A stretch of 32,000 nt of DNA. Source: Mycoplasma mycoides subsp. capri. Its GTDB lineage: Bacteria; Bacillota_I; Bacilli_A; Mycoplasmatales; Mycoplasmataceae. Each line of letters starts with the position of its first letter. Positions within the stretch are counted from its first letter, which is position 1. Positions 6,633 to 32,000 of the stretch are shown here, in pieces. The notes beneath the pieces are model-generated. The model ran no database searches. It worked only from the letters and a program-made list of their open reading frames with translations, and was not told the origin of the DNA. The translations under genes were made by a program, and so were the position numbers. The DNA is taken from the NCBI RefSeq assembly GCF_018389705.1, contig NZ_CP065581.1:630001-662000 (forward strand), read 5' to 3'.

Positions 6633-8846
6633 TTAATCGCTTGTATTTGAATTGTTCTCTGAATTATCTGATGCATTGTTATTTTGTTGATCATTATTAG
6701 TTGGAGTATTATCATCTACTCGACCTATTAATGTAACAGTTTGTAAACTATTATAAGTAAAGTCTTTAGCTTTAAATCTAAAGTTTAATAAATCTGTTAA
6801 AAGACCAAAATCTAAATCGGCATTACGTGTTGAAACAATTGAAATACCTTTAGAAAAATCAACTACTTTATCAAATCCTTCGTTATATGTAGTTTGAAAA
6901 TCTTTGTTTTTATAGAATAATGATTGATAATGATTACCTAAATTTTGATAAATACTAAACTTTTTAACTCCTAACATATTAGAAGTTAAATACTGGTCTT
7001 TTAACCTTTTAGCATCAGCACTAAAATCTAAACTATAAAAACTAGTTGGATCTGTTATTTCGTTACTATTATTTAGGTATTTTTCTCATTCAGATCAAAT
7101 GTTAAAATCTTTATCTTCAAAATCTTCTAAATTACTTGGTTTTCCTGTCATATTGAATAGGTTTTTTCTTTGTGAATAATGAATTTCAGTTTTAACATCT
7201 TTATCTGTTGTGTATGGGAAATTAGGATTTGCTTTTCTAATTCCATAAAATTTATGAAATTCTTCTAACATAATTTCAATACCTTTATAATATGCATCAA
7301 ACATATTAGATTTTTTATAACCTTCATATTTTAGTTTTTCTTTGTTGTCAAAATCTATATTTCTATCATTTTGATCAATTTGTACTACATAATTAAAATT
7401 AATGTTTCCTAGATCATGAATATATCCACTTTTTAGTTTTAATTGTAAACCTTTTAATTCAAAACTTTCAATTGCAGTTGCTGATTTAAATAGATTTTTT
7501 AAAAGATCGTCTCTATCAAATTTTTTACTAAATTCAGATATATCTTTTTCATCTAAAAATTCAAATTTTGAATAAATATCAGTTAGTTTTTGTTTAATTA
7601 CTTCTTTAAAACTAGTTAATTTATTTACTCAAGGTTCAATTAGATCTTGAACTAAATTCATATCTCCCTGTTTTGTAGTAATTAAATCTAGTTTTTGATT
7701 TTTATTAACTTCACCAAAATATAGATGCAATAATTTGTATGCCTCTTCTTTTAAAGAGCCACCATCTTGATTATTATAATTTCTTTCTAAAGGACCAATT
7801 TTTAATTCTGTTTTAATTCTATCAACATCAGTTTTTTGCTCTGGATCTTTATATGAAATTTCTAAATTCTTAACTACTTGATTTTTATTGTTTTTTATTA
7901 ATTTTTCTGAAATTTCATCTTTGATTTTATCGGCTAATTTTTGACTATAAAGATATGTTGCATTTTTATAATTATAGCTAGTTGCTGTTAGTAAATCTTG
8001 AGCAGTTAAAGATTCGTGTTCATTTAATAATTTTTTTAATTCTTTAAAATCAACTGTTAAAAGATCTTTATTATTAAATAGTGAATTAGATCAAAATTTC
8101 TGAATATTATGAACTAATTCAATAACAGCATTTTCACTAGAAATATTAATTATAAAATCATTTGAAATAATTTCTCTTTTAGTTTGTCCATGACCATCTT
8201 TATATTGATAATTAAAGTCTAATCCAATTTTAATAGTTGAATTAAATGAACCATTATCTTCTTCTAAAAATTTCATTTTAGAATTATCTAATCTAAACTT
8301 AAATCCTACAACTAAATTGTTATTAAAATTATCTAATAGAATTCTATATTTATCAATTCCTGTTTTTTTTACTTGTTCTAAAAACAACCTTTTAGCACTA
8401 TGAATACCTAAAACAGTTTCTAAAGTTTTTTGAAATTCTTCTTTTCTTCTATTTGTAAGATTAGAATAAAAACTATGATATCCATCTTTATCTTCATTTG
8501 GATCTCTTTCGCTTACAAGTTGCCTAATACTTTCTTTTGAAAAAAAGCTTTGATTCTCATCTAGATCTTTTGATAAAATAGCTGTTCTTGAAACAATATA
8601 AGGTCTTACAGCCTCATTATAAGCATCTCTCATTTGACTATTAAAACTCTTAATTAAGTCAAGTATTGATTTATTTCTATCACTACTATCAGGTTTAGTA
8701 GTTGGATCAGGTTTAGTGTTTGAATCAGGTTTAGTATTTGAATCGGGTTTTTTGTCTTCTGATTTATCTCTAATACATGCAACAACTGGACTTGCAGCTA
8801 GTGTTATAAAACTAGAAAGTGTTAATAATTTTAGTAGTTTATTCAT
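6633..8846 (-). CDS. Large surface lipoprotein (about 737 aa)
   Basis: Signal peptide with lipobox MNKLLKLLTLSSFITLAASPVVAC. Track fragments 8091-8846, 7095-7304 and 6633-6977 share one frame. The junctions I checked are TGA; real TAA at 6633. Interior continuity was only spot-checked. Confidence 0.7.
8689..8760 (-). repeat. In-frame 18-nt tandem repeat encoding KPD(S/P)(N/T)T units
   Basis: tcaggtttagtNNttgRa repeated at 8689, 8707 and 8725, with a degenerate copy at 8743. It encodes KPDSNTKPDSNTKPDPTTKPDSS just after the lipobox. Confidence 0.7.
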
Positions 8847-24971: not shown

Positions 24972-26471
24972 TTATTCTCTAATTAATCTAGTAATCATTT
25001 TTGATTGAATATCTGATTTAGCTAAACTTGTCATTTTTAATTTAATTTGTTTTAAATCCATATATTCAGCAATAATATAGTTTGCAGTTCATATAAATGT
25101 TGTTAGATAAATTCCTAATAAACAAAAAATTAATATACAGCAAATATAATAAACTTCAGTAATTTTTTTAATAAATAAATAGTTTTTATCTAAATCAGTA
25201 TTATTAATTACTTCAAATACTGATTTAAATATACTAAATAAACCAATATTATTAACTTTACAAATACTAATTACTAAATATCAAACTGATAAAGTTAAAA
25301 ATGTAACTGTTAAAAAAGTAGATAAAACAGAAACTTTAGTACTTCTATAATCTCACATTAAAGCAATGCCAAATCATAAATAAAACATTACAAAGAAAAA
25401 TAAACCAAACACTCACATCATTATTGTTAGTAAATAAATATTATGAATAAAAGTAATTAGAATTACTCCAAACATCGTTAGACTAGTTAGAATAGAAATT
25501 GATTTAACAATTCCAATCACTTTAATAACTAGTTTATAAAATAAATAACCTAATAATAATTGTCCTAAAACAAAACTTAATCTAAATGATTGTAAGTAAT
25601 TTCAGACATTTAAATTAGTATATGATTGTTGTTTTAATTTACTTACTAAAAATAGTTCAAAAATATCTGATTTAATAATTACATTAACACTTGTAATTAA
25701 AAAACTCATCACAATTAAACCAATTAAAACTTTATAATCATATCTTTGTAATTGTTCAACTATATCTTCTTTATATTTAATAACTTTGATTTTTCTTTCT
25801 TTTACAAATATAGAAACTACTAAACAAATAATTAAACAAACTAAACTTAAACTAAAAATTATTCAATTTGTATAACTATTATGATTAGAAATTAGATTTA
25901 AGTTTAATAAACTATAAACTTCATAACTAATAAAAGTTGCAAAACTTATAACAAATCCAGCTTTTATACTACTAAAAACTGGAAATAATCTTTCATTAAA
26001 CTGTTCATTAAAAAATAAAAAGTAAATAATTTGAGCTGAAATGCCTACTGCTAAAAATAAACTAATAAAAATAATACTTGTTATATTTACATTACTTAAA
26101 AAAGCAATCATTACACTTAAAAAACAGCTAAATAAACTAATTCAAATTCAAATTCTTCTACTTTGTAATTTTAAAGTTAGTCATAATGCAAATGGATTCA
26201 GAATCGTTGCGTATAAAAAATAACTACTTAAAAAAAGTAAAATAGTTAAAGTAGAACTTGAAAATGTTTTTAAAATTGGTGAATCAATATAATTTGTAAT
26301 TATTTGAATTAAAAAATTAATTACAATTCAAAAACTACTAATTTCTAAATAAAATAATCCTTTTTGTTTAGAAATGCTATTTTTATAAAATAAATAACTA
26401 GCAACAATTAATCAAATCACTATTAATAAAGGATTTATTATATATAAATCTCAACTAAACAACTTATTCAC
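24972..26471 (-). CDS. Polytopic membrane protein (about 10+ TM spans), probable GTG start
   Basis: Hand translation shows one continuous frame, open from the TAG at 26487 down to the TAA at 24972, with many TGA = Trp codons inside hydrophobic spans. No ATG lies near the 5' end; candidate starts are GTG at 26471 or 26474. The 5' boundary is uncertain. Confidence 0.55.
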
Positions 26472-26754
26472 CACTTCTCTAATTAACTATTTATATTATA
26501 AATAAAAGCATATAAATAAAAGTTAAAATTAGTTATAAAACTCAGTTTATAGTCATAAAATTTAGCTATTTGCTTTTAATTAATAATTATAGTTTAAAGT
26601 TTAGAAATTAAAATTCTAATTTAGATTTAATAACTATACAAAATGTAAAAAAGTTTTATTTAGAAGATTATTAAAAATGAAAATGAGTAAATAATAAATA
26701 ACCATTCTTAGTCAGATTACTTGAAATATTAAAATCAGTATGGTATGTTAATAA

Positions 26755-26775
26755 TATAAATATTTTATATTTATA
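26755..26775 (+). promoter_or_regulatory. Conserved 21-bp palindrome (promoter/operator), copy A
   Basis: TATAAATAT-TTT-ATATTTATA, with perfect 9-bp arms; contains TATAAA/TATATT -10-like hexamers. Confidence 0.6.
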
Positions 26776-26873
26776 CGTTGATTGCGAAGAAGGTTCACTG
26801 AACGAAGGCTTCCGGCGGTGAAGCCAGAAATAAATAGAACCAAAAATAGAACTCCTTTTAGGGTTCTTTTTTT
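26776..26873 (+). ncRNA. Candidate small RNA or leader, class 1, copy A (upstream of P1)
   Basis: G+C-rich body. Helix GGTTC (26792-26796) / GAACC (26837-26841) encloses hairpin GGCTTC-cggcggt-GAAGCC (26807-26825). Terminator AGAACTCC-tttt-AGGGTTCT plus T7 ends at 26873. The 5' end is inferred. Confidence 0.6.
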
Positions 26874-26926
26874 ATATATAATTAGTATCTAATTAGAAAG
26901 ATAAACTAAGATTTATTAGTAGTTTA

Positions 26927-27655
26927 ATGTTTGGTACAGTATTTAGATTTAGAAATTTAGATAATACATTACCAATAACAAGAGATAGATATTTTGAACC
27001 TATAGATACCAGTGGTAAAAAACTTCACCGTCCTTATGTTGTTTTTTATTCTGATGATAAGGTTTATTATTTATCTGTTAAAACATTAAAAAAAAAAGAA
27101 AATGAAGCTTCTGTTTATAGAAACCAAGATACTAATGTAATCTTATTAAATAAAACTGTTTATTATGAACCAGTTAAAGGTGAAGCTCTTGGTAATGTAA
27201 TAGATTGTTCATCTGTAAATATAATGGATAGAAAATTATTTGAACAATTATTTGAAAAAGACAGTTTTAAAAATAATTACCAACTAGCTCCTTGAATTTA
27301 TGATCAAGTAATGAACAAACTTTATGAAAATAAAAATAATTTAGTCTTCCATGAAGTAACTGGTTTTAATGACAACAAGGTTGAATGAATGATTGATAAA
27401 ACAAAAACTGAGCAGGGTCGTTTAGAGTATGAAAAATGACGAACAAGAGTTGAAAAAGTAATCACAACTGTAATAGAAATTTATCATTCAATTTCAAGAG
27501 ATGATATAGAAAAAAGATTAAACAATCAAGAAGAATACGTTAAATTTATTAGTCCAATCTATTATGATGAATTAGAATACGTTTATAAATCTTTTGAAAT
27601 AGATGATAAATGAGAAGAATATCAAAAAAGTAATTCTAATAAGCATAAGATGTAA
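26927..27655 (+). CDS. P1: PemK/MazF/ToxN-like N-terminal domain protein with a helical C-terminal domain (candidate toxin)
   Basis: Track ORF 26927-27295 extended across 4 TGA codons (every codon hand-translated) to the TAA at 27653; 242 aa. Motifs GTVFRF, HRPYVVFYSDDKVYYLSVKT and GNVIDCSSVNIMDRKLF. Confidence 0.8.
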
Positions 27656-27796
27656 TTAAGATTATAGGGGTTCTTTTTTTTATACTTATTGGGTATCGCT
27701 TCCTAATATATACTAAGTAAATGTAAAATATAAATATATAAAATAGTTTGCTTGCTATTAATTACAACATCAAAAATTATTATGATATAGTTAAAG

Positions 27797-27817
27797 TATA
27801 AATATTTTATATTTATA
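27797..27817 (+). promoter_or_regulatory. Conserved 21-bp palindrome, copy B
   Basis: Identical TATAAATATTTTATATTTATA. Confidence 0.6.
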
Positions 27818-27916
27818 AGATTGGTGGTTGTAGTTCTTCCGGCCCTGTCTACCATTTGAGATGACGAAATTGAGAATAGAACTAAGTTAGAACTCTCTTA
27901 AAGGAGTTCTTTTTTT
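27818..27916 (+). ncRNA. Candidate small RNA or leader, class 2, copy B (upstream of P2)
   Basis: TGGTGG / CTACCA helix. AGTTCT (27832-27837) is complementary to two AGAACT copies (27878-27883 and 27889-27894). Terminator AGAACTC-tcttaaag-GAGTTCT plus T7 ends at 27916. Confidence 0.6.
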
Positions 27917-27958
27917 ATATAATTTAGTTATATATCTTAAAAAAATAGTAGGTATCAA

Positions 27959-28897
27959 ATGGGTATAGAAGCAGGTAAAATCTATAAAAATCGAAACCAA
28001 GAATATAATTTTTTTATAGCAAAAGATAAAGATGATGAAGTAATTAAAGGTCATGGTATAAATAGACCATTTATTATATTTTATAGTGATGATAAAGTTT
28101 ATTACTTATCTGCTAAAAGTATTAGTAAAAAGAATAGAAAAAAAACTTTAGCTGATAAGTTTAATGTTGTTTTTAAAACAGATCTATATGGAGAAGATAA
28201 AGAAGTAGCTATAAATTGTTCAGTTATAAATATAATGGATAGAAAATTATTTGAAAGTTTATATGTTAAAGATGATGATATGAACAATTTTCAAACTACT
28301 CCATGACACTATGATAAGATAATGGGAACTTTATATAGATATTTTGATGAAATAACATATGCTGAAGCTTCACATATTGATAATGATACGCAACAATTAG
28401 TGTGAAAATCTACTTTAGAATCTAAATTAAATAAATTAGATTGTTTAAAAGTAATCAAAGGGTATAACTATCTTTTATTTGAAAGTGATATATCAAGAAA
28501 AGAGTTGCTAGATAATCCTGATAAATTTTTTAGTTTAGTTACAAGCTTTTATGAAAGAGTTAAATTTGAAACTCAAGAAGATTTTGATGAATATGTTATT
28601 ACACACCAAGAAATGGAATCTATCAAATATGAAGTGCACATTAAAAATGCAATTAAAGAACTAAAACAAAATCTAGAAAAAGAAAAAGAACAACATAAAC
28701 TATTAGAACAAGAGATAGATGTTGTTAAAAAACTAAATTATAAAAATAGTAAAATACAAGAGATGAACCAAGAGCTTAAAGATTGAGAAGAATTAGTTGA
28801 AATATCATCACATAAAACAAATAAAACTAATTCTGATAAAAAAACTGATGAACCAGATAAACCTAAGCAAAATCAATCTAGCAAGCTTAAAATGTAA
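27959..28897 (+). CDS. P2: divergent paralog of P1/P3 (candidate toxin) with a longer Glu/Lys-rich C-terminus
   Basis: Track ORFs 27959-28306 and 28505-28786 are in frame; the junction was hand-translated across TGAs. 312 aa; TAA at 28895. Motifs GKIYK, NRPFIIFYSDDKVYYLSAKS and AINCSVINIMDRKLF. Confidence 0.8.
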
Positions 28898-28952
28898 TTA
28901 AAACTATAATATCTTACTATATATTAAGTAAGTAATAAAGATATAATAAAGA

Positions 28953-28973
28953 TATAAATATTTTATATTTATA
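28953..28973 (+). promoter_or_regulatory. Conserved 21-bp palindrome, copy C
   Basis: Identical TATAAATATTTTATATTTATA. Confidence 0.6.
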
Positions 28974-29070
28974 GGTTGAGCGGTAGCAAGTTCATCTAAA
29001 CCGTGACTTCCGGCGGTGAAGTCTAAATAATTTGAACTAAAAATAGAACTCCTTTTAGGGGTTATTTTTT
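28974..29070 (+). ncRNA. Candidate small RNA, class 1, copy C (orphan, in tandem with D)
   Basis: AGTTCA (28989-28994) / TGAACT (29033-29038). Hairpin GACTTC-cggcggt-GAAGTC (29005-29023). The terminator 3' arm is weakened (GGGGTTA) and followed by T6. Confidence 0.55.
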
Positions 29071-29188
29071 ATACTTAATATATACTAAGTAAGTATAAAA
29101 TATATTATAAAATATGAACTTTATGCATATTAAATAATTTATTTTGATGTTATTTTCAAATACAAAAATTAATATGATATAGTTAAAG

Positions 29189-29209
29189 TATAAATATTTT
29201 ATATTTATA
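29189..29209 (+). promoter_or_regulatory. Conserved 21-bp palindrome, copy D
   Basis: Identical TATAAATATTTTATATTTATA. Confidence 0.6.
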
Positions 29210-29307
29210 CATTGAGCGGCAGTGGGTTCATCTGGTCATGGCGTCCGGAAGTGATGCCGAAAATAATTGAACTAAAAATAGAACTCCTTTTAGGGGGTTC
29301 TTTTTTT
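29210..29307 (+). ncRNA. Candidate small RNA or leader, class 1, copy D (upstream of P3)
   Basis: GGTTCA (29225-29230) / TGAACT (29268-29273). Hairpin GGCGTC-cggaagt-GATGCC (29240-29258). Terminator AGAACTCC-tttta-GGGGGTTCT plus T7. Confidence 0.6.
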
Positions 29308-29345
29308 GTATAATCAATATGTAATAGAAAGATAAACTAAGATTT

Positions 29346-30092
29346 ATGAATAGTGGAATGTACGGTAAAGTGTTTAGATTTAGAAATTTAGATAATACAT
29401 TACCAATAGCAAGAGATAGTCTTTTTAAAAATATACCAACTGATAATAGTAAACTTCACCGTCCTTATGTTGTTTTTTATTCTGATGATAAAGTTTATTT
29501 TTTAAATGTTAAAACACTAAAAGAAAAAAATAAAAATAATGTTGATAAGTACATAGATACTAATGTAATCTTATTAAATAAAACTATTTATAATCAACCA
29601 ATTAAAGGTGAAGCTCTGGGTAATGTAATAGATTGTTCAGTCGTAAATATAATGAATAGAAAATTATTTGAACAACTTTACCAAGAAGATGAGTATTATA
29701 ATAACTATCAATTAGCTCCTTGAATTTATGATCAAGTAATGAATAAACTTTATGAGAATAAAGATAATTTGATAGTTCATCAACTCAAAGCTTTTGATTT
29801 TGAAAATAATAAAACTCTTTGATATGAAACTACAAAATCTAATGACAAGCAAAATTCAACTGATAACAATAAGTGATTAGCTAGAGCTAAAAAAGTAATC
29901 ACAACTGTAATAGAAACTTATCATTCAATTTCAAGAGATGAAATAGAAAAAAGATTAAATAATCAAGAAGAATACATTAAATACATTAGTCCAATCTATT
30001 ATAACGAATTAGAATACGTTTATAATTCTTTTGAAATAGATGATAAATGAGAAGAATATCAAAAAAGTAATTCTAATAAACATAAGATGTAA
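29346..30092 (+). CDS. P3: close paralog of P1 (candidate toxin)
   Basis: Track ORF 29346-29723 extended across TGAs to the TAA at 30090; 248 aa. The C-terminal 70 aa are nearly identical to P1 (KVITTVIE.YHSISRD.IEKRLNNQEEY...DDKWEEYQKSNSNKHKM). An alternative start is the ATG at 29358. Confidence 0.8.
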
Positions 30093-30094
30093 TT

Positions 30095-30119
30095 AAGACT
30101 ATAATATAGTCTTTTTTTT
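30095..30119 (+). terminator. Rho-independent terminator of P3
   Basis: AAGACTATA-a-TATAGTCTT followed by a T-run. Confidence 0.7.
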
Positions 30120-30234
30120 ATACTTAATATATACTAAGTAAGTATAAAATATTATAAACATATAAACTTTATGCATATTAAATAATTATTTTGATATTAA
30201 TTGCAATACCAAAATTATTATGATATATTTAAAG

Positions 30235-30255
30235 TATAAATATTTTATATTTATA
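30235..30255 (+). promoter_or_regulatory. Conserved 21-bp palindrome, copy E
   Basis: Identical TATAAATATTTTATATTTATA. Confidence 0.6.
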
Positions 30256-30353
30256 CGTTGAGTGGCAGTGAGTTCATCTGGTCATGGCGGACGATTGGTG
30301 AAGCCGAAAATAATTGAACTAAAAATAGAACTCCTTTTAGGGGTTCTTTTTTT
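30256..30353 (+). ncRNA. Candidate small RNA, class 1, copy E (orphan, inner hairpin disrupted)
   Basis: Same outer GTTCA/TGAAC and terminator as copy D. The inner hairpin 5' arm reads GGCGGAC against the 3' arm GAAGCC, so only GGC/GCC can pair. Confidence 0.5.
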
Positions 30354-30468
30354 ATACTTAATATATACTAAGTAAATATAAAATATAAGAATAATATAAA
30401 CTTTATACATATTAAATAGTTTTCTTGCTATTAGTTGCAATACCAAAATTATTATGATATAGTTAAAC

Positions 30469-30489
30469 TATAAATATTTTATATTTATG
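30469..30489 (+). promoter_or_regulatory. Conserved palindrome, copy F (last base differs)
   Basis: TATAAATATTTTATATTTATg. Confidence 0.55.
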
Positions 30490-30588
30490 ATATCGGTGGT
30501 TATAGTTCTTCCGGCCATGTCTACCATTTGAGATGACGAAATTGAGAATAGAACTAAGTTAGAACTCTCTTAGAAGAGTTCTTTTTTT
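30490..30588 (+). ncRNA. Candidate small RNA, class 2, copy F (orphan)
   Basis: Near-identical to copy B (GGTGG/CTACC, AGTTCT, two AGAACT). Terminator AGAACTCT-cttaga-AGAGTTCT plus T7. Confidence 0.55.
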
Positions 30589-30701
30589 ATACTTAATATA
30601 TACTAAGTAAATATAAAATATATTAGAACGTATAAACTTTGTATATGTATTAAGTATTTTTTTATTTTTGCAAGTCCAGAATTAATATGATATAGTTAAA
30701 G

Positions 30702-30722
30702 TATAAATATTTTATATTTATA
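30702..30722 (+). promoter_or_regulatory. Conserved 21-bp palindrome, copy G
   Basis: Identical TATAAATATTTTATATTTATA. Confidence 0.6.
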
Positions 30723-30820
30723 AGTTGAGCGGTAGCAAGTTCATCTAAACCGTGACTTCCGGCGGTGAAGTCTAAATAATTTGAACTAAAAATAGAACTC
30801 CTTTTGAGAGTTCTTTTTTT
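30723..30820 (+). ncRNA. Candidate small RNA, class 1, copy G (orphan; 114 nt upstream of the DUF285 gene)
   Basis: Body identical to copy C. Terminator 3' arm changed to GAGAGTTCT (AGAACTC/GAGTTCT pairing), followed by T7. Confidence 0.55.
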
Positions 30821-30934
30821 ATACTTAATACGTACTAACTAACTTTAAAATATATTAGAAAAATTAAATTTTATCTATATTAAATAGTTTGCTTGTTATT
30901 TATTTAAAATAATATTAAAAATAAATTAAAGATT

Positions 30935-31462
30935 ATGATGAATAAAATTATAAAACAACCAGTTTATAATACTAATCAAACTGAATGCTTAGAAATTGGA
31001 TATGAATGATATGATAATCAAATATCAATTATTCCATTTCCTCATACTATTAAAAAAGTTCCAAGAGTTTTACCAACTCAAATTACTAGTTTAGAAAATG
31101 CCTTTATTTATAATCAAAATGAATTTATTGATGGAATAGAGTACTGAGATACATCAAATATAACTAATATGTATTCTATGTTTTATGAAGCTAATAATTT
31201 TAATCAAAATATTAGCATGTGAGATGTAAGTAATGTTGTTGATATGAGTTATATGTTTTGTTGAGCTTATAAATTTAATCAAGACATTTCAAATTGAAAT
31301 GTAAGTAATGTTAAATATATGAATGATATGTTTTATTGTGCTAATAATTTTAATCAAAATATTTCTAAATGAAATGTAAGTAATGTAAAAAAGGATTATC
31401 AAAATATTGGTAGTGGTGGGTTTAATTGAAAAGATGAGTTTAAACCTAAGTTTAATAAATAG
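30935..31462 (+). CDS. DUF285-type (BspA-like leucine-rich repeat) protein
   Basis: Fully hand-translated: 175 aa with 7 TGA = Trp codons. Repeats of the form MF..A..FNQ.IS.W[DN]VSNV are characteristic of the Mollicutes DUF285 family. TAG at 31460. Confidence 0.8.
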
Positions 31463-31481
31463 AATTAATAACAAGATATAA

Positions 31482-31505
31482 AAGCAGTCTTAGACTGCTT
31501 TTTTT
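31482..31505 (+). terminator. Rho-independent terminator of the DUF285 gene
   Basis: AAGCAGTC-tta-GACTGCTT followed by a T-run. Confidence 0.75.
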
Positions 31506-31630
31506 GTTAAATGTTTTTTTAAAAAAATAATCATTTTTAAATAATAAAATAAGTGTTTATGAATAAAAACAAACTTATTAAAAAAGTAAAATTATAGTAA
31601 TAAAAGGTATTTAAAATATAGAAAGACATT

Positions 31631-32000
31631 ATGAAAAAACTATTATTTATACTTCCAATAACTTTAATACCACTATTAACTATTACTAGTTGTTCAACTA
31701 ATTTTCAATTACCAGAATCTAATAAAAAATATGATAAAAATAATATTAAAAAAGAAATAAAGAATTTTACTTATAATGGTATTACATATAACTTAATTAA
31801 AGAAGATAATATTGATCCAGAAAATGTTTATTATGCTAATGAAGTATTAGAAAATGACGCAAAACAATTTAAATCATATATTCCTGATTATAAAAAATAC
31901 TTTTATAACCAAGTAGATAATAAACTAAAACTTGCCACTCCTGATTTAGGCGCATCTTGATTTGATTTTCCAACTATTGCTAAACTTAGTCAATTTGTCA
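31631..32000 (+). CDS. Lipoprotein (3' end outside the window)
   Basis: MKKLLFILPITLIPLLTITSC lipobox. The track stop at 31958 is TGA, so the frame runs off the window. Confidence 0.7.

Follow-up and report, generated by a model that had tools for sequence, protein, structure and literature searches.

The question raised by a stretch of 32,000 nucleotides (nt) from Mycoplasma mycoides subsp. capri (contig NZ_CP065581.1, positions 630,001 to 662,000; the whole stretch is called the window here) is what is done by seven short, structured RNA genes in its last part, three of which lie directly upstream of three related protein genes, P1, P2 and P3. An earlier note, made from the sequence alone, regarded this locus as a candidate type III-like toxin-antitoxin (TA) or abortive-infection locus. 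The RNA is identified here as MCS4, a Mycoplasma small RNA (sRNA), and the reading that is somewhat favoured is that MCS4 is the RNA antidote of a new type III-like TA pair carried by the integrative and conjugative elements (ICEs) of mycoplasmas. The strongest result is the general linkage between the RNA gene and a gene of the family to which P1, P2 and P3 belong (termed P), and it is described after the modules themselves.

The window has a G+C content of 21.8%, and its genes were read with genetic code 4, in which TGA encodes Trp. Seven modules, each consisting of a promoter, a structured RNA of ~120 nt and an intrinsic terminator, are found on the plus strand at the positions reported earlier. 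These RNAs are copies A (26755..26874), B (27797..27917), C (28953..29072), D (29189..29308), E (30235..30354), F (30469..30589) and G (30702..30821). The palindrome TATAAATATTTTATATTTATA, said by the earlier note to be perfectly conserved, is present on the plus strand with zero mismatches at 26755, 27797, 28953, 29189, 30235 and 30702, but has one mismatch at 30469, where the last base is G. Shuffled sequences predict 0.5 matches to this palindrome with three or fewer mismatches, and none of 100 shuffles equals the observed count. The 75-nt RNA bodies contain 37-45% G+C as compared with 21% in their surroundings, and the count of 29 G+C in the 47-nt core of copy D, given previously, is exact. 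All seven copies close with a stem-loop, the stem of which contains G+C, and a T-run in a terminator scan, which finds 11 terminator-like sites in 26400-31600 as compared with 0.5 expected. The spacing of the modules is 236 nt from C to D, 234 nt from E to F and 233 nt from F to G, as had been measured, and Tandem Repeats Finder detects an array with a period of 234 nt at 30113-30890. No tRNA or tmRNA is found in a scan of the window.

Copies A, B and D pair with P1 (26927..27655), P2 (27959..28897) and P3 (29346..30092), respectively, all on the plus strand. The distance between the RNA end and the ATG codon of P is 42 nt for B-P2 and 38 nt for D-P3, in agreement with the earlier count, and 52 nt, instead of 53 nt, for A-P1. 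Copy C is not followed by a P open reading frame (ORF), and copies E, F and G are orphans. Copy B belongs to a subtype like the copies on the ICEs of M. bovis and M. agalactiae, and copies E, F and G are of D-like, B-like and C-like subtypes, respectively.

All seven copies match Rfam family RF02713 (MCS4) over model positions 1-123 of 123 with scores of 35-66 bits, which contradicts the earlier statement that no RNA family of this shape has been described. The gathering score of 56 bits is exceeded by three of the seven copies, B (66.1 bits), E (58.6 bits) and F (58.3 bits). Copies D (52 bits, E 1.6e-5), G (42.7 bits, E 1e-3), C (37.2 bits) and A (35.2 bits, E 0.027) are below this score, yet align over the full length of the model. 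Rfam lists MCS4 among sRNA genes and not among riboswitches or leaders, a match to which had been named as evidence against the TA proposal, and MCS4 is the only family that matches the RNA modules; no cis-regulatory family of Rfam does so. The palindrome was assigned to the promoter by the earlier note, but the Rfam model places it within the transcript, where it forms the 5' hairpin at positions 1-23. In the 1990s, Ushida and Muto reportedly found MCS4 in M. capricolum, as a stable RNA of ~125 nt that is abundant there and resembles the U6 small nuclear RNA; it is said to have been assigned no function.

The linkage between this RNA and P was analysed at the loci around P homologues, which were taken from contigs encoding the homologues and from a genome scan (at least 10 loci). 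The RNA genes at these loci were located by Rfam and by a covariance model built from the copies on Hominis-group ICEs. An MCS4-type RNA gene ends 14-52 nt upstream of all 19 P genes tested with the covariance model (19/19), and these P genes are from M. mycoides, M. feriruminatoris, M. bovis, M. agalactiae, M. auris and Mycoplasma sp. HU2014. Wherever members of the protein family are found, they come with the layout of an RNA gene and a terminator followed on the same strand by the protein gene. Linked P genes number three in the window and occur in M. feriruminatoris, at several loci in M. auris and at two loci in Mycoplasma sp. HU2014, and the ICE of M. mycoides subsp. capri 95010 carries two RNA-P modules. 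One strain of M. bovis has one P gene, and a second strain (locus L003, 5701-7743) has two tandem P genes, with two RNA genes before each. In M. agalactiae 5632 (L011, 2463-2983), three tandem RNA genes with a period of 169 nt precede one P gene. Depending on the element, one to three RNA genes accompany each P gene.

The layout extends to RNAs that Rfam does not recognize. Loci L008, L012, L013 and L014 are blank in the Rfam search, and direct reading reveals at each of them a module of the same design with a different sequence, in which a promoter and a 5' hairpin are followed by a structured body and a terminator; the covariance model built here scores these modules at 22-40 bits. In M. anseris and a metagenome contig, which hold the most distant members of the family, a hairpin-plus-terminator module is seen in the same place, as judged by eye and by folding, without a score. 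The Rfam model of MCS4 is probably much too narrow for the family as a whole. Divergent RNA-like modules are located before divergent P subfamilies at L008 2847-2960, L012 46-166, L013 2374-2474 and 2869-2974, L016 2372-2478 and L018 871-940. They fall into at least three further classes, which are missed by the Rfam MCS4 model and detected weakly or not at all by the model built here.

The linkage is asymmetric. P without an RNA gene is not found among the loci examined, but RNA also occurs without P: no intact P gene accompanies 13 of the 31 tabulated RNA copies, eight of them orphans and five additional tandem copies that precede a P-linked one. Two of these 13 copies precede a truncated P start, and one further copy is cut by the contig end. 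The RNA and P co-diverge across distant Mollicutes. The identities of RNA and protein are correlated among 18 modules with a Spearman coefficient of 0.65, a value that none of 2000 permutations reaches. The pair of RNA B and P2 is similar to that of M. bovis, and RNAs A and D accompany the P1/P3 type. No conserved ORF is found in the RNA, and no ORF for a small protein antitoxin is found between or beside the pairs. In M. bovis CP058470 (L001, 6968-7126), a 52-aa gene has been called where the strain of locus L003 has an MCS4 copy (6967-7080), and this gene is probably an annotation artefact over the RNA gene.

The structure of the RNA is conserved as well. In single-sequence folds, copies A, C, D and G share four helices, which are the 5' hairpin rich in A and U, the outer stem GUUCA/UGAAC, the G+C-rich inner stem and the terminator; the minimum free energy fold of copy D has an energy of -36.7 kcal/mol. 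The seven copies are like RF02713 in that they align to the full model, form the same helices and are supported by covariation, and are unlike it in that A, C, D and G score below the gathering score and the RNAs before divergent P genes are missed altogether. When 28 matches of the covariance model from six species are aligned (copy B scores 62.8 bits with covariance model R1), 93.9% of the cells are standard pairs and 23 of 24 pairs have changes on both sides, although these counts lean towards the structure because the alignment is fitted to the model. The pairing values are reached by none of 500 shuffles, and only 35-45% of the cells are paired when the 3' partner is slid by 1-3 columns. 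The terminator helix (helix 4) covaries across species. A plain MAFFT alignment retains one inner-stem pair that alternates between CG, UA, GC and AU, and RNAalifold run on it predicts only a 3-bp stem, with the hairpins mis-registered. A candidate 5-bp pseudoknot stem, GGCAG/CUG-n-CC, spans the outer stem and is 93.8% paired as compared with 11-67% when slid, with only nine cells changed on both sides. Its covariation is confined to A-U/G-C at one position, and the suggestion that the RNA may fold as a pseudoknot is tentative. Nearly all copies keep the sequence GAAAU immediately 3' of the inner stem. Known type III toxins are reported to cut within A-rich motifs, and it is a matter of speculation that GAAAU might be a recognition site of the toxin.

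The transcript is predicted to be 115-121 nt long from the positions of the promoter and the terminator. Tandem Repeats Finder detects no short tandem repeats (34-45 nt) inside any RNA copy; the only periods that it finds are those of whole genes (234 nt for the array in the window, 169 nt for M. agalactiae). The possibility that the RNA encodes a peptide was considered and rejected. ATG codons are present in some copies (GAGATGGCG) and absent at that place from A, C and G, the frames differ, and the substitutions track base-pairing.

P1, P2 and P3 are proteins of 242, 312 and 248 aa, respectively. All three match NCBIfam NF045891, "Mbov_0400 family ICE element protein", with 112-122 bits against a curated cutoff of 55 and E values of 1e-32 to 1e-35 (P1, 122.1 bits, 2e-35; P2, 111.9 bits, 3e-32; P3, 112.5 bits). 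Their description as paralogues holds, with 72% identity between P1 and P3 and 34% between P1 and P2. P1 matches a Mycoplasma mycoides protein with 100% identity, and the N-terminal 150 aa of P2 are 98% identical to those of a copy on the ICE of M. mycoides subsp. capri 95010. The family is small. At 90% identity it forms 35-45 clusters in a set of 5.8 billion proteins, and it has 36 representatives among 1.8 billion 50%-identity clusters; all matches with a named source are from mycoplasmas, namely M. mycoides, M. feriruminatoris, M. bovis, M. agalactiae, M. auris and M. anseris. The ratio of nonsynonymous to synonymous substitution rates is 0.22-0.53 among P orthologues and paralogues, indicating that the P genes are under purifying selection. 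No P homologue is found in IMG/VR viral contigs. A single IMG/VR match to the MCS4 core pattern was rejected as a chance match, which lies in an apparent coding sequence, scores 21.7 bits over a short stretch and has neither a hairpin nor a terminator.

Each protein has a conserved N-terminal domain of ~150 aa, which is followed by a C-terminal extension. The extension is helical in P1 and forms a long coiled-coil, Lys-rich part in P2. The earlier note was right about this extra domain, but its size beyond the conserved domain is about 90-160 aa rather than 125-195 aa. The extension varies in length and sequence, and some members of only ~140-150 aa lack it, although these are possibly truncated. 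Most C-termini in the family end in a short alternating motif, such as NKHKM, SKLKM, RKLKL, NKFHM, DLELEL or RFTLKL, which is encoded at 27635-27655, 28877-28897 and 30072-30092 in the window. This motif could serve as a tag for recognition or secretion, or dock onto a partner as a β-strand.

The fold of the N-terminal domain was predicted by AlphaFold2 for a domain of 151 aa from M. bovis (P0011) with an alignment of 29 sequences. The predicted local distance difference test (pLDDT) score is 91.5 and the predicted template modelling score is 0.87. This model supersedes a first AlphaFold model of full-length P1 with a shallow alignment, in which the pLDDT score was 76, the N-terminal domain was weak and no meaningful Foldseek match was obtained. 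When 350,542 chains of the PDB are searched by Foldseek with the domain model, the first match is CptN, the toxin of the CptIN type III system (4rmo_A; E 4.1e-4, probability 1.00, template modelling (TM) scores 0.51/0.50), and the second is MazF-mt1 (6kyt_K; E 9e-3, probability 1.00, TM scores 0.48/0.59). E. coli ToxN (7d8o_A; E 0.33, probability 0.38), AbiQ (4glk; E 0.40, probability 0.25) and ToxN (2xd0_A; E 0.71, probability 0.21) follow at ranks 6, 8 and 17, respectively, and no other protein family recurs among the top matches at comparable probability. The N-terminal domain of P is therefore modelled as having a CptN/ToxN/MazF fold. The link between P and these toxins is at the fold level only, because sequence methods fail to detect it. 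Searches of Pfam and PADLOC yield nothing significant for P1, P2 and P3, and by sequence comparison P is not a member of the ToxN/AbiQ family. Several polar residues are conserved in P, which are R35-P36 at the opening of a β-hairpin, S50-x-K52 at its end, N98 and E106 (R35, S50 and K52 in P1 numbering). These residues are consistent with a putative metal-independent RNase site.

The RNA genes and the P genes appear to be transcribed from separate promoters. The RNA promoter, recognized at the level of consensus, is of the extended -10 type. It is located upstream of the palindrome and has the form TTGCAA, 17 nt, TG-n-TATAGT, ending 5-6 nt before the 5' hairpin. In the promoter scan it is detected on the plus strand for copies A (26721..26749; TTGAAA, 17 nt, TATGTT with an upstream TG, ending 5 nt before the hairpin), D (29155..29183; TTCAAA, 17 nt, TG-n-TATAGT), E (30201..30229), F (30435..30463) and G (30668..30696). 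The plus-strand promoter of copy B (27762..27791; TTACAA, 18 nt, TG-n-TATAGT) was read from the sequence, and copy C has a TATAAT -10 box at 28942-28947. Further candidate promoters on the same strand face P. A perfect TATAAT directly follows the T-run of the copy A terminator (26877..26882, for P1), and TATAAT boxes follow the terminators of copies B (27918..27923, for P2) and D (29309..29314, TGTATAAT, for P3). A perfect TATAAT is located 0-9 nt after the terminator T-run in all 17 of the P-linked copies tabulated (17/17). This box is missing after the unlinked RNA copies, except for two, both of which are followed by P remnants. P probably has its own promoter, because the perfect TATAAT follows the terminator in all tabulated P-linked copies and in no unlinked ones but those two, and the upstream half of this promoter would overlap the RNA terminator, so that both read-through and transcriptional interference are possible. 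For the same reason, the earlier idea of an RNA:toxin ratio governed by the terminator alone is doubtful. In Hominis-group species, the TATAAT is only 7-10 nt before the ATG codon of P, and the sequence suggests that the P mRNA of this group is possibly leaderless. A hairpin with a T-run is also present 3' of the P3 stop codon (30095..30120, plus strand), which was read from the sequence and is not in the table of the terminator scan.

The P1 cassette lies between direct repeats of the terminator 3' arm, which are located at 26860-26873 and 27666-27680 and have the sequence AGGG(G)TTCTTTTTTT. Of these, the one at 27666..27680 (plus strand) is a second copy of the 3' arm and T-run of the terminator (AGGGGTTCTTTTTTT) and is followed by TATACTT, as is seen after orphan RNAs. 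Recombination between these repeats would remove P, and the RNA gene would be left behind as an orphan. The predicted state after such a deletion is exactly that of copy E, and copies C and G are slightly different in the terminator arm.

The RNA-P modules are located on ICEs, next to a DDE recombinase gene. In M. bovis ICEs, the P gene lies between the conjugation genes and this gene, and in the ICEs of M. bovis and M. agalactiae, a P homologue is just upstream of the DDE recombinase gene cds22. The P family is probably cds36 of the M. agalactiae element ICEA, to judge from size (0.65 kb) and position. No transposon insertion in cds36 has been recovered and no function has been proposed for it, and an insertion in the non-coding region between cds36 and cds22 leaves conjugation unaffected (PMC6030558). 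The ICE papers mention neither an RNA gene nor a toxin at this position (PMC6030558, PMC12892342). In the vestigial ICEA of M. agalactiae PG2, insertions in non-coding regions D, E and F reduce growth on host cells (PMC3179502, Table 4), and these regions might contain MCS4-type RNA genes. In the window, the array is followed by a gene for a DUF285/PARCEL-repeat protein (PF03382, E 4e-36) and a lipoprotein-like ORF (30935-31462 and 31631-32000). A DUF285 gene also follows the RNA-P modules on the ICE of M. mycoides subsp. capri 95010 (L019, 10111-10530). The presence of this gene after the modules in both places suggests that the island in the window derives from an ICE end. The window would thus hold an ICE-derived island with three RNA-P pairs and four orphan RNA genes. 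Two other neighbours were noted. The most divergent P homologue, P0068 on metagenome contig ERZ28638484 (L018, 3481-4213), is ~1.8 kb from an Abi_2 gene (PF07751, abortive infection), which is a single hint of a defence-island context. In Mycoplasma sp. HU2014 (L014, 2415-2741), a cluster of four tRNAs is located directly upstream of the RNA-P module.

In the favoured reading, P would be a metal-independent endoribonuclease toxin, and the abundant, hairpin-protected MCS4 RNA would bind and neutralize it, as in type III TA systems. The pair would serve as an addiction or defence module of mycoplasma ICEs. The orphan and extra RNA genes C, E, F and G would either keep the antidote in excess or remain after the loss of a P cassette between direct repeats. 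The antitoxin would be a single structured RNA that is multiplied as whole genes instead of short internal repeats, which would make this a fourth kind of type III system. The toxicity and RNase activity of P and its neutralization by the RNA are inferred from these analyses. A more specific version is put forward with greater reserve. In this version, the "U6-like" MCS4 may be the antitoxin of a fourth type III family, in which a CptN-fold toxin with a C-terminal extension is paired with an RNA of ~115 nt, possibly a pseudoknot. The family may have been spread by ICEs among ruminant mycoplasmas, and chromosomal orphan arrays may provide immunity against incoming or lost toxins.

The pair resembles type III TA systems in that the RNA gene is immediately upstream of P on the same strand for 19 of 19 P genes, an intrinsic terminator separates the two, as at the end of all seven copies in the window, and the fold of the ToxN/CptN (Kid/MazF-like) endoribonucleases is predicted for P, a resemblance at the fold level only. 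It is most similar to the CptIN system of Eubacterium rectale (4rmo), of which it shares the toxin-sized domain of ~150 aa, the best structural match and the upstream RNA with its terminator on the same strand. The CptI antitoxin is a short tandem-repeat RNA that is processed by the toxin. In contrast, MCS4 has no internal repeats and has individual promoters, and P has its own -10 box and a C-terminal extension. The ToxIN and AbiQ-antiQ systems have the same gene layout and are carried by mobile elements, and ToxN and AbiQ are among the fold matches; short motif resemblances to ToxN and AbiQ (an RPY-hydrophobic strand, L-S/T-x-K and N-x-M) are seen by eye. However, P has no match to the ToxN_toxin family of Pfam, and the ~36-nt repeats are missing. 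The differences from ToxIN that the earlier note pointed out, which are the lack of internal repeats of 34-36 nt, the repetition of whole modules at ~235 nt and the extra C-terminal domain, all stand. MazF-mt1 is the second-best fold match, but the pair is unlike MazEF/PemIK in that no small protein-antitoxin gene is adjacent, the upstream space is filled by the RNA gene, and no PemK/MazF match is found in Pfam. One survey reports TenpN homologues in Mollicutes, and these form a family different from P. The system is filed here as working like type III, and not as a member of ToxIN, CptIN or TenpIN, because it lacks a repeat antitoxin processed by the toxin and its promoter organization appears to differ.

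Several points weigh against the identification of MCS4 and P as an antidote and its toxin. The fold match is moderate, with TM scores of ~0.5 and a root mean square deviation of 7.4 Å, and comes from the PDB library only. No Pfam match is obtained at E values up to 10 for 29 members of the family, and sequence-profile searches of PDB sequences yield nothing relevant. Comparison by hhalign with four solved ToxN/AbiQ sequences gives a probability of 0.13, CptN not being included in this profile comparison. Unlike the RNAs of known type III TA systems, MCS4 has no tandem repeats of 34-45 nt that are cut by the toxin, and the operon logic differs, each RNA copy, and apparently P too, having its own promoter. 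In addition, MCS4 is said to have been first found in M. capricolum and to be abundant and stable there. No P homologue from M. capricolum appeared in the protein searches, in which the genome itself was not scanned, and therefore MCS4 may function independently of P.

The alternative that survives best, although unlikely, is that P is a non-toxic RNA-binding or RNA-processing partner that uses or matures MCS4 or is titrated by it, for example in the control of the ICE in the manner of FinO/FinP. The conserved linkage and the co-divergence of RNA and P also fit this alternative. It would also accommodate the helical C-terminal extension (60-160 aa) and the conserved C-terminal tail, both of which are foreign to type III toxins, as well as the fixed place of the modules on the ICE beside the recombinase gene. 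The reported stability and abundance of MCS4 would be unusual for an antitoxin. However, the best structural matches of P are the toxins CptN, MazF, ToxN and AbiQ, and not RNA chaperones, and the occurrence of orphan RNAs without any orphan P is the pattern that TA logic predicts. The insertion between cds36 and cds22 of ICEA, after which conjugation is unaffected (PMC6030558), also speaks against this alternative.

It is improbable that P is instead a fused TA protein, in which the C-terminal domain auto-inhibits the N-terminal RNase domain as in CapRel and the RNA modulates P in cis by promoter occlusion or read-through. The orphan and tandem RNA genes retain their promoters and the structure of the RNA shows covariation, which fits a trans-acting product, and some members of ~140-150 aa have no extension with which to inhibit the RNase domain, though they may be truncated. 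Two observations are accounted for by such a fusion, namely the variation of the C-terminal extension in length and sequence, and the position of the P -10 box, which abuts the RNA terminator in such a way that transcription of the RNA gene could interfere with that of P.

The earlier note itself offered a purely cis-acting leader or attenuator as an alternative, and a structured RNA on the same strand as P, with a terminator just upstream of P, is what such a leader would look like. This alternative is highly improbable, since four of the seven copies in the window and 13 of the 31 tabulated keep their promoters with no P downstream, MCS4 is an sRNA gene in Rfam with no match to a cis-regulatory family, and P has its own TATAAT downstream of the terminator. 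Least probable of all is a coincidence in which MCS4 is a housekeeping sRNA beside which P inserts or hitch-hikes, as its reported first discovery in M. capricolum and the lack of a P from that species in the protein searches might suggest, because the linkage holds for 19 of 19 P genes and in distant Mollicutes, even where the RNA is beyond detection by Rfam, and the RNA and the protein co-diverge.

The RNA family and the protein family are both already catalogued, neither with a function. In the literature searches, no paper was found that names a function or a protein partner for MCS4 or associates it with an ICE, the original MCS4 paper being outside the literature searched, and none was found in which a type III system is connected to MCS4, to Mbov_0400/cds36 or to the ICEs of mycoplasmas. 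What appears to be new is that the two families are paired, that P is assigned this fold and that the proposed antitoxin is not built of repeats.

If MCS4 is indeed the antidote of P, the MCS4 sRNA family would acquire a testable function, and so would a conserved, unannotated gene of the ICEs, by which ruminant pathogens are driven to exchange genes on a large scale. Type III TA systems would have to be defined more widely, and current searches for short repeats upstream of ToxN-, CptN- and TenpN-like genes would miss systems of this design. The pair would also represent a stabilization or defence module in near-minimal bacteria, a group with few known TA or defence systems to which the M. 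mycoides lineage behind the synthetic minimal cells belongs.

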